Assembly: GCA_964448045.1 (NCBI GenBank)
Contig: CAYUVF010000005.1
Span: 34,841-98,840, forward strand
Direction of reading: 5' to 3'
Length of the DNA: 64,000 bases
Origin: an uncultured Rhodothermales bacterium
GTDB lineage: Bacteria > Bacteroidota > Rhodothermia > Rhodothermales > Salinibacteraceae
This document shows, one piece after another, positions 57,611-58,242 of this stretch (position 1 is its first letter; every line of letters begins with the position of its first letter). A model generated the notes under the pieces. It was not told the DNA's origin. It ran no database searches and was given only the letters and a program-made list of their open reading frames with translations. The position numbers and the translations under genes are program-made.

Positions 57611-57745
57611 GCGGGTGAGGGCGTTGTGAGTGAGCTGCTCACACGCCCTCGCCGTCAGCAATATGCTGATGCCCGGTCTCGATGGCCCTGGGCCGGGCGC
57701 TCAACGCAGGCCCTCGAGCACTTGCTCCCCGCCCCGCCTATTGTG
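57611..57745 (+). pseudogene. decayed relic of a receiver gene paralogous to 55746..56117
   Basis: ccgtcagcaatatgctgatgcccggtctcgatggc aligns to gtcgtcagcgatatgctgatggttggtctggatggc (LVVSDMLMVGLDG). A 5-nt deletion follows, then loss of about 110 nt. The tail gagcacttgctccccgccccgcctattg aligns to gagcgcctgcttccccgtcccgcctaatg, and the stop codon is lost. Confidence 0.6.
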
Positions 57746-57777
57746 CTTCTTCCGTCCTCCAACCTTCGCTGACCCTC

Positions 57778-58242
57778 ATGCTCCGTCTCTCCGTCTTGAT
57801 CGCCGCCTTCGTCGCGCTCGCACCGGTCCTTGCCGCGCAACCCATCAGCGACAGCGCGTTCGTGGCCCGGATCTACGCCGACCTCGCCCGGGGCGACGTC
57901 GCGGCCGTCGCGGCGGTCCTCGACGACCACGTGCTCTGGATCGAAGATGCACGCAGCCGTCAAGCCAAGCAGCACTTTGGCCCGGGCACCGTCGCCCGGT
58001 ACGTGTTACAGCCACAGATCGATGCCGGGATCGTCGATGTGCCCGGAACCATCGCCACGTCCCGCGGCCGCGTGATGGTCGTGGGGAGCACTCGGCGGGG
58101 CATGCCGGGGACAAGACGGTTCAGCCCCGCACCCTTTTACCACGTGTGGCGAGTGGTCGACGGCCGTGTCGTGAGCGTCGAGCGGTCTGCCAATCGACCC
58201 GTTGACGCACACGCCATTGAGCGCAACACCCCCAACATCTAA
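57778..58242 (+). CDS. exported SnoaL-like (NTF2-fold) protein
   Basis: Leader MLRLSVLIAAFVALAPVLAAQ, then IYADLARGDVAAVAAVLDDHVLW...WRVVDGRVVSVE, a typical SnoaL_2 pattern. Confidence 0.6.
   Translation: MLRLSVLIAAFVALAPVLAAQPISDSAFVARIYADLARGDVAAVAAVLDDHVLWIEDARSRQAKQHFGPGTVARYVLQPQIDAGIVDVPGTIATSRGRVMVVGSTRRGMPGTRRFSPAPFYHVWRVVDGRVVSVERSANRPVDAHAIERNTPNI

Follow-up and report, generated by a model that had tools for sequence, protein, structure and literature searches.

The stretch of DNA analysed here (64,000 nucleotides from an uncultured Rhodothermales bacterium, called the window below) carries a regulatory locus in which a hybrid sensor kinase and a stand-alone receiver are followed by a tectonin lectin gene, a broken piece of a second receiver and a series of exported proteins. 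The features concerned are the following:

50367..54635, plus strand: hybrid sensor kinase/AraC regulator of 1422 aa (Y_Y_Y, HisKA, HATPase_c, receiver and HTH_18 domains; from the list of open reading frames)
55746..56117, plus strand: intact stand-alone receiver of 123 aa (PF00072, E 6e-14)
55902..56180, plus strand: copy A of the duplicated unit, i.e. receiver codons ~53-123, stop, spacer (56118-56153) and ATG plus 9 codons (from alignment and repeat search)
56154..57593, plus strand: tectonin lectin gene of 479 aa (PF19193, E 1.7e-49), the putative insert
57615..57652, plus strand: 16-bp stem-loop with one bulge and a 5-nt loop, starting 22 nt past the tectonin stop (from RNA folding)
57634..57741, plus strand: receiver relic (pseudogene fragment), receiver codons ~50-123, with a start that is firm from 57645 and tentative for 57634-57644
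57742..57777, plus strand: copy B of the spacer, 36 nt and pyrimidine-rich, the resident intercistronic leader of the NTF2 gene (the L011 and L012 spacers are of equal length)
57778..58242, plus strand: exported NTF2-fold (SnoaL_2) protein of 154 aa (PF12680, E 1.5e-5)
58291..59394, plus strand: exported TPR plus DUF4440 protein (Pfam), a conserved downstream neighbour
59472-59954: DUF4440 (Pfam)

The Pfam matches agree with the identities that an earlier note had given to the genes at the centre of the locus, i.e. a receiver (PF00072), a tectonin (PF19193) and an NTF2-fold protein (SnoaL_2). The translation of the intact receiver has the acidic pocket (DDD), the phospho-acceptor aspartate in SDMLM and the lysine in EKPF. 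It reads MVGLDG (55925-55933) where the relic and all those fetched orthologues whose receivers were read have MPG[LV]DG, a normally conserved proline beside the phospho-acceptor having been changed at all three codon positions (CCC to GTT). Between the kinase and the receiver lies an exported orphan (54895-55578), which has a low G+C content (0.55-0.58), like the 3′ half of the tectonin gene. Its homologue in the related contig L011 (1136-1846, 45% identity) sits downstream of the NTF2 gene, so that the orphan, too, shifts its position within the locus.

The conserved receiver-NTF2 gene set

A receiver gene lies directly upstream of an NTF2/SnoaL_2 gene, 14-41 nt apart, in nine distinct related contigs, and the receivers in the fetched contexts are 127-139 aa long. 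These contexts (L009, L010, L011, L012, L016, L017/L018, L019/L020 and L014) were drawn from the contigs of seven NTF2 homologues and from one metagenome locus (L014), the latter being the one examined of two loci returned by a profile scan of metagenome contigs with the NTF2 alignment; the same scan of genome contigs confirmed nothing. In none of the related contigs does a tectonin gene or a receiver relic stand between the receiver and the NTF2 gene. Most of the fetched contexts have a hybrid kinase upstream and TPR-DUF4440 genes downstream, and the Y_Y_Y hybrid kinase/AraC architecture adjoins the receiver-NTF2 pair in L009, L010, L012, L016 and L017. Specifically, L012 is the orthologous locus, with 77% identity in the kinase (over 1422 aa; a conserved upstream neighbour), 82% in the receiver, 81.5% in the TPR-DUF4440 gene (partial in L012; the L009 gene is 69% identical), a spacer of 36 nt and the same receiver C-terminus, HVERLLPRPA. 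The intact receiver of the window shares 82-85% identity with those of L012 and L011 and keeps its upstream synteny, and it is from copy B that the downstream gene order (NTF2, TPR-DUF4440, DUF4440) carries on, as it does in L009, L012 and L016.

The NTF2 protein has 17 homologues of 48-69% identity, nearly all of them 144-166 aa long, and a search with it among 60 relatives gave no real matches. The homologues start with MLRLSVLIA, MLRLSALIA or MRRLSALLA, i.e. with M[LR]RLS..., and a start of the MLRLS type is therefore the family's own and not a borrowed front end. Taken together, the adjacency of receiver and NTF2 gene in nine contigs and this family-wide start argue that the NTF2 gene is the native gene behind the receiver.

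A recurring gene set can be recognized in at least nine related contigs (window 50367-60301; L009, L012, L016, L017 and L019), in the order Y_Y_Y hybrid kinase/AraC regulator, stand-alone receiver, exported SnoaL_2 protein, one or two TPR plus DUF4440 proteins, DUF4440 lipoprotein and a protein of ~93 aa. The short pyrimidine-rich spacers suggest that the kinase-receiver-SnoaL_2-TPR-DUF4440 set forms one operon. No SusC/SusD genes accompany it, and it is apparently uncharacterised. A search of the literature for comparable cases or for the conserved operon found nothing specific.

The duplicated junction, the relic and the tectonin gene

When 55700-56260 is aligned with 57560-57860 (Smith-Waterman), 55902-56221 pairs with 57645-57836 at a score of 106, against 24.2 ± 3.4 with a maximum of 37 for dinucleotide-preserving shuffles (n = 300). 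The same blocks are found independently by repeat search, as 55902-55943/57645-57686 (81%), 55945-55979/57683-57717 (86%) and 56102-56180/57726-57804 (81%). The similarity that the earlier note had seen between 57641-57800 and 55905-56180 is thus real and far above shuffled controls: 57645-57804 is a diverged and gapped second copy of 55902-56180 in direct orientation, comprising the receiver gene's 3′ portion, the spacer of 36 nt and the ATG plus 9 codons. Copies A and B differ at 40 of 168 aligned positions (about 24%) and by several indels, which were read off the offsets between the repeat blocks, and their divergence is about as large as that of the intact copy from its L011 and L012 orthologues. 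A second copy that differs to this degree cannot be an assembly artefact. Within the 4.1-Mb genome (all 124 contigs, blastn and blastn-short) the leader and the relic occur only twice and no third copy was found, and the DNA of 55700-58300 yields only chance matches of 30-40 nt among 40 relatives, so that the further leader copies for which a search had been proposed did not appear.

Downstream, the homology ends after codon 9 of the two genes (from 56181 and 57805 onward the similarity does not significantly exceed that of codon shuffles, p about 0.06), which confirms a break point inside the signal sequence. Upstream of about 57634 nothing significant is left of it, and an ‘ISAT’ resemblance found there was discarded as the native C-terminus of the tectonin, which is common to its homologue P0002. 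Copy B starts at receiver codon ~50, about 40 nt past the tectonin stop, and is continuous with the whole NTF2 gene. The duplicated unit as first described is therefore borne out for the receiver's 3′ portion, for the spacer and for the first codons; a receiver that was once complete is not supported, the relic being without its first ~50 codons. Both spacers are 36 nt long and identical at 29 of 36 positions (81%), in line with the conservation already remarked upon, whereas spacers of different lineages share 19-22 of 36 (53-61%); A and B are each other's best match (Fisher p 0.04-0.12).

All the lesions ascribed to the relic at first reading are present. Besides the missing 5′ end, these are the loss of 5 nt between two TGGC repeats, a larger internal deletion (put at ~110 nt and measured as 113 nt) whose ends share TCGA microhomology (55976-55979/56089-56092), and the loss of the stop codon (TAA to TAT, 57739-57741), to which a 1-nt deletion 3′ of the 113-nt one and a changed phospho-acceptor codon (GAT to AAT; Asp to Asn, turning SDMLM into SNMLM) can be added. 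The 5-, 113- and 1-nt deletions are all frame-shifting. The relic is too short and too broken for domain detection; its peptide AVSNMLMPGLDG is nevertheless clearly homologous to VVSDMLMVGLDG of the neighbouring CheY-like receiver, at the nucleotide as well as the peptide level, and it aligns to the intact receiver and to those of L011 and L012, thus combining the homology with the loss of frame and of a catalytic residue that mark a receiver pseudogene. Private substitutions, i.e. those at positions where the other copy, L011 and L012 agree, fall on codon positions 1, 2 and 3 of the relic in the ratio 4:3:1 (seven of eight at positions 1-2), and four of the six private to the intact copy fall on position 3, both being small samples. 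Since the substitutions of the relic avoid third positions, the fragment probably never worked for long, small as the sample is. This pattern, which is that of neutral change in a small sample, the microhomology-flanked deletions and the change from Asp to Asn together indicate that the relic is probably under no selection, and it was probably dead on arrival or soon after.

Open reading frames that run over the relic (57500-57772, 57630-58205 and, on the minus strand, 57655-57975) were considered as genes and rejected, as was an upstream start of the NTF2 gene at 57682. They either depart from the reading frame of the homology or leave the signal peptide buried, and the MLRLS position is where the NTF2 homologues begin. 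The segment 57634-57741 should be annotated as a receiver pseudogene fragment and not as coding sequence.

The tectonin gene begins with codons that appear to be derived from the NTF2 gene: codons 1-9 (56154-56180) read MLRFSALRA, and 23 of the first 27 nt match the NTF2 start of L011 and 21 match copy B. From codon 10 onward the leader has its own h- and c-regions, CAICLALLWTVPTAAQ before the cleavage site and EIVWT after it, and the leader/mature boundary ‘AQ[ED]I.WT’ is common to the tectonin of the window and P0002. The stop of the homology at codon 9 and this native boundary thus point to a chimeric signal peptide, with an n-region from the NTF2 protein and the h- and c-regions of the tectonin itself. 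The best homologues are P0003 (on the related contig L008) and P0002 (from an Acidobacteriota MAG); the leader of P0002 is different (MKRSLFPTF...) and no receiver lies nearby, nor is there a receiver directly in front of tectonin homologues elsewhere. No match to the protein was found in 60 family- and order-level relatives, and a scan of metagenome contigs with it confirmed nothing.

With the L008 gene the tectonin shares 74% identity, more than the flanking genes of L008 share with those of the window (kinase 46%, receiver 66%, TPR 56%), and its propeller is 70% identical to that of the Acidobacteriota protein. The G+C content in its 3′ half is 0.55-0.58 compared with 0.65-0.70 nearby. The absence from relatives, the distant best matches, the separate leader of P0002, the G+C dip and the identity contrast with L008 all argue that the tectonin gene is the insert, foreign or mobile, and the NTF2 gene the resident, and identities of about 65-70% across phyla suggest horizontal transfer. 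On the other hand, a locus of this kind in L008 has tectonin genes between its kinase and its receiver, so that the tectonin may be an older resident of this locus type which was moved locally rather than newly imported.

Some further observations concern the tectonin family itself. The single propeller of the window's tectonin is equally similar to both propellers of the 797-aa P0002 (L013 6001-8394; 70.7% and 70.5%), so that the long two-propeller form may be an internal duplication, or the short form its collapse. In L008, positions 4583-7977 hold a long two-propeller tectonin in two overlapping open reading frames (4583-6043 and 6001-7551), a split that suggests a frameshift or an assembly error, followed by more tectonin fragments (7724-7977) and then, before the receiver is reached, by a PKD/Por_Secre_tail protein. 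In this type of kinase/receiver locus tectonin genes thus look unstable.

Between the tectonin gene and the relic lies a strong hairpin. The fold of 57585-57680 has a free energy of -49.7 kcal/mol, compared with -32.0 ± 3.3 for shuffled sequences (z -5.3; none of 200 shuffles as stable), and no second copy of the hairpin sequence exists in the genome. Its 3′ arm is the first recognisable sequence of the relic, GCTCAC(AC)GCCCTCG, from the AHAL codons of the receiver, and in its 5′ arm the receiver's LAHAL codons that form the 3′ arm seem to recur in inverted form. The tectonin/relic junction is therefore palindromic, and the 5′ end of the relic accordingly looks like a fold-back or template-switch break rather than the result of slow erosion. 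As for a Rho-independent terminator, 57615-57652 provides the G+C-rich stem-loop and lacks the U-tract, the sequence after the stem being CGTCAGCAATATGC, and a terminator scan gave no hit at this place; the hairpin may serve today as a 3′ stem-loop for the tectonin message.

Present-day expression can be predicted from this layout. The tectonin gene has taken the former place of the NTF2 gene: it starts 36 nt past the receiver, and its pyrimidine-rich spacer and opening codons are of the NTF2 kind. Co-transcription with the receiver and an initiation like that of the NTF2 gene would therefore be expected, i.e. expression and translation through the signals of the receiver operon. The NTF2 ATG lies 184 nt past the tectonin stop, behind the strong stem-loop. 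No sigma-70-type promoter was found by a scan of 55500-58400, no Bacteroidota-type TAnnTTTG motif was seen there by eye, and no Rfam covariance model matches at E <= 1 in 55400-58500. One front end indeed now serves two unrelated exported genes, as the earlier note had proposed.

Origin of the arrangement

We have high confidence that the locus holds a real duplication scar in which the tectonin gene is the insert, the NTF2 gene is native and the relic is non-functional. On the sequence evidence, it would go back to a single, old rearrangement in which a horizontally mobile tectonin gene came to lie inside the conserved kinase/receiver/NTF2/TPR-DUF4440 operon and about 280-350 bp of the receiver/NTF2 junction were duplicated, from receiver codon ~50 to the stop, with the 36-nt spacer and the ATG plus 9 codons. 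The upstream copy would have been joined to the 5′ half of the receiver, leaving that receiver intact, and its spacer, ATG and nine codons (the charged n-region) would now head the tectonin gene, which kept its own hydrophobic core and cleavage site. The downstream copy would have remained joined to the NTF2 gene, which thereby retained its original translation start and leader. The piece of receiver ahead of the NTF2 gene, having neither a 5′ end nor a function, would later have lost 5, 113 and 1 nt, its aspartate and its stop.

More specifically, such a duplication of the target junction could come about by single-crossover integration of a circle or by a replicative template switch, with the fragment 5′-truncated from the outset. 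The hairpin may have arisen in the rearrangement itself, where a broken end of the receiver copy folded back or switched template. The event appears to be old, the two copies being about as far apart as the intact one is from its L011 and L012 orthologues. In the spacer A is closest to B (29/36), and over all 168 aligned columns the four-taxon informative sites (copies A and B, L011 and L012) split 5:4:1, so that the event may precede or follow the separation from L011 and L012. As recombination between similar copies restores a scarless empty site, the absence of the tectonin gene from L011 and L012 is no strict proof that it was never present there.

A second route to the same general outcome is tandem duplication with reciprocal loss. 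Here the ancestor would have had the order tectonin, receiver, NTF2, and a duplication from inside the tectonin leader to NTF2 codon 9 would have produced tectonin, receiver, a fusion of the NTF2 start to the tectonin, receiver and NTF2, after which the first tectonin and the second receiver were lost or decayed. The NTF2 gene would still be the native partner and the relic would once have been a complete receiver. This route has the merit of producing the chimeric junction in a single event, in a comparable locus, that of L008, tectonin genes do precede the receiver, and the relic has demonstrably been hit by several deletions. However, a tectonin remnant upstream of the intact receiver was searched for and none was found, no relative has its tectonin immediately before the receiver, two or more additional large deletions must be assumed, and the private substitutions of the relic show no third-position excess (n = 8), which argues against any appreciable time under selection. 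The missing tectonin remnant and the larger number of steps favour duplication of the target junction, so that the fragment was probably truncated from the outset rather than being a decayed full copy. The earlier idea of a second receiver, once complete, that then decayed fits poorly with the missing ~50 codons and the 4:3:1 substitutions. Tandem duplication is a possible but rather unlikely sub-route within the general statement made above, and its probability is not to be added to that of the statement.

A bolder and less probable extension, which we regard as doubtful, is that the tectonin gene travels among the kinase/receiver/NTF2 loci of related bacteria on a small circle or fragment, together with part of the receiver-leader junction, and integrates by homology; the relic and hairpin might then be a terminator/restart module that uncouples the NTF2 gene. 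If this were true, the tectonin would automatically come under the control of the two-component operon, with a working translation start and n-region, and exactly such a scar would be left.

The polarity of the event has also been read the other way round. The earlier note took receiver and tectonin as the original pair and the NTF2 protein as the new cargo, the front end (the whole receiver, the spacer and the first codons) having been copied before the NTF2 gene and the extra receiver having decayed. That the intact receiver adjoins the tectonin and the decayed one the NTF2 gene would fit this, but the receiver is directly upstream of the NTF2 gene in all nine related contexts, the MLRLS... 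start (MLRLSVLIA-like) is native to the NTF2 family, the tectonin homologues have neither such a start nor a receiver directly upstream, and the downstream synteny runs on from copy B as in L009, L012 and L016. The direction is therefore to be reversed, and the reading with the tectonin first is highly improbable. No better placed is the idea of two old paralogous receiver-cargo operons in tandem, of which the second receiver was pseudogenised while the leaders were kept alike by gene conversion or common regulation. The divergence between A and B (about 24%) is indeed as large as that from the L011/L012 orthologues; against this, no relative has two receivers in the locus, the non-coding 36-nt spacers are 81% identical compared with 53-61% between lineages, and the homology ends abruptly at codon 9 and at receiver codon ~50, like rearrangement break points.

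A mobile system of cassettes, either integron-like or built on a repeated ‘export front end’, in which cargo is exchanged behind a standard leader, as the phrase ‘cassette-like’ in the earlier note implied, can be given almost no credence: although the gene behind the receiver does vary (mostly NTF2, tectonin here, TPR-DUF4440 in L008), the genome has the leader in two places only, the 102-kb contig C5 has no tyrosine recombinase (PF00589 matches lie on ten other contigs) and no integrase, there is no attC-like core or repeat, no Rfam match and no array, the hairpin sequence is found at no other place in the genome, and one gene only has been inserted, with no third cargo in any relative. The arrangement is a one-off event.

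The locus is thus a natural example of how a regulated operon can acquire a foreign gene for a secreted protein in a single step: the tectonin captures a resident spacer, start codon and n-region while the duplicate junction keeps the resident gene working. The receiver belongs with the NTF2/TPR-DUF4440 genes, a widely conserved set for exported proteins beside the Y_Y_Y hybrid kinase, the lectin being a later passenger.

Comparison with known systems

The gene cassettes of integrons resemble the present case in that promoterless genes for exported proteins stand behind a common upstream expression region. Unlike them, the locus described here has no integrase (on contig C5), no attI or attC and no array, and it goes back to one event. 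A receiver (PF00072) pseudogene in the usual sense is matched by the homology of the relic to the neighbouring CheY-like receiver; the relic differs in that it is on balance a 5′-truncated partial copy left by a rearrangement, and not a gene that decayed in place.

The closest parallels are with known rearrangements. A segmental direct duplication flanking an insert is matched in its direct orientation, in similarity above chance (106 compared with 24 ± 3.4; 81-86%) and in orthologous sites that are without the intervening segment (nine contigs, 14-41 nt). In Campbell-type integration the insert is flanked by direct copies of the target, and the process is reversible by recombination until the copies diverge. 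The scar described here is like that of a Campbell-type or template-switch event in that the insert lies between direct copies of a few hundred bp, each joined to one intact part; it is unlike it in that no vector, circle or donor has been identified and the copies are about 24% diverged, with deletions. The short palindrome at one of the junctions also speaks for a break with fold-back and against a clean crossover.

The join-point fusions known from tandem duplication (innovation-amplification-divergence) are similar in that the 5′ end of one gene (regulatory region, start and first codons) is fused to the body of another, which gains expression signals. Here only 9 codons, the n-region of a signal peptide, are contributed, so that the product is not a new protein, and the other expected products of tandem duplication are absent. 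The type of event is therefore a known one, belonging to ordinary genome evolution and needing no new mechanism; what the analysis usefully adds is the corrected polarity, the conserved kinase-receiver-NTF2-TPR-DUF4440 operon, the palindromic junction and the chimeric signal peptide.
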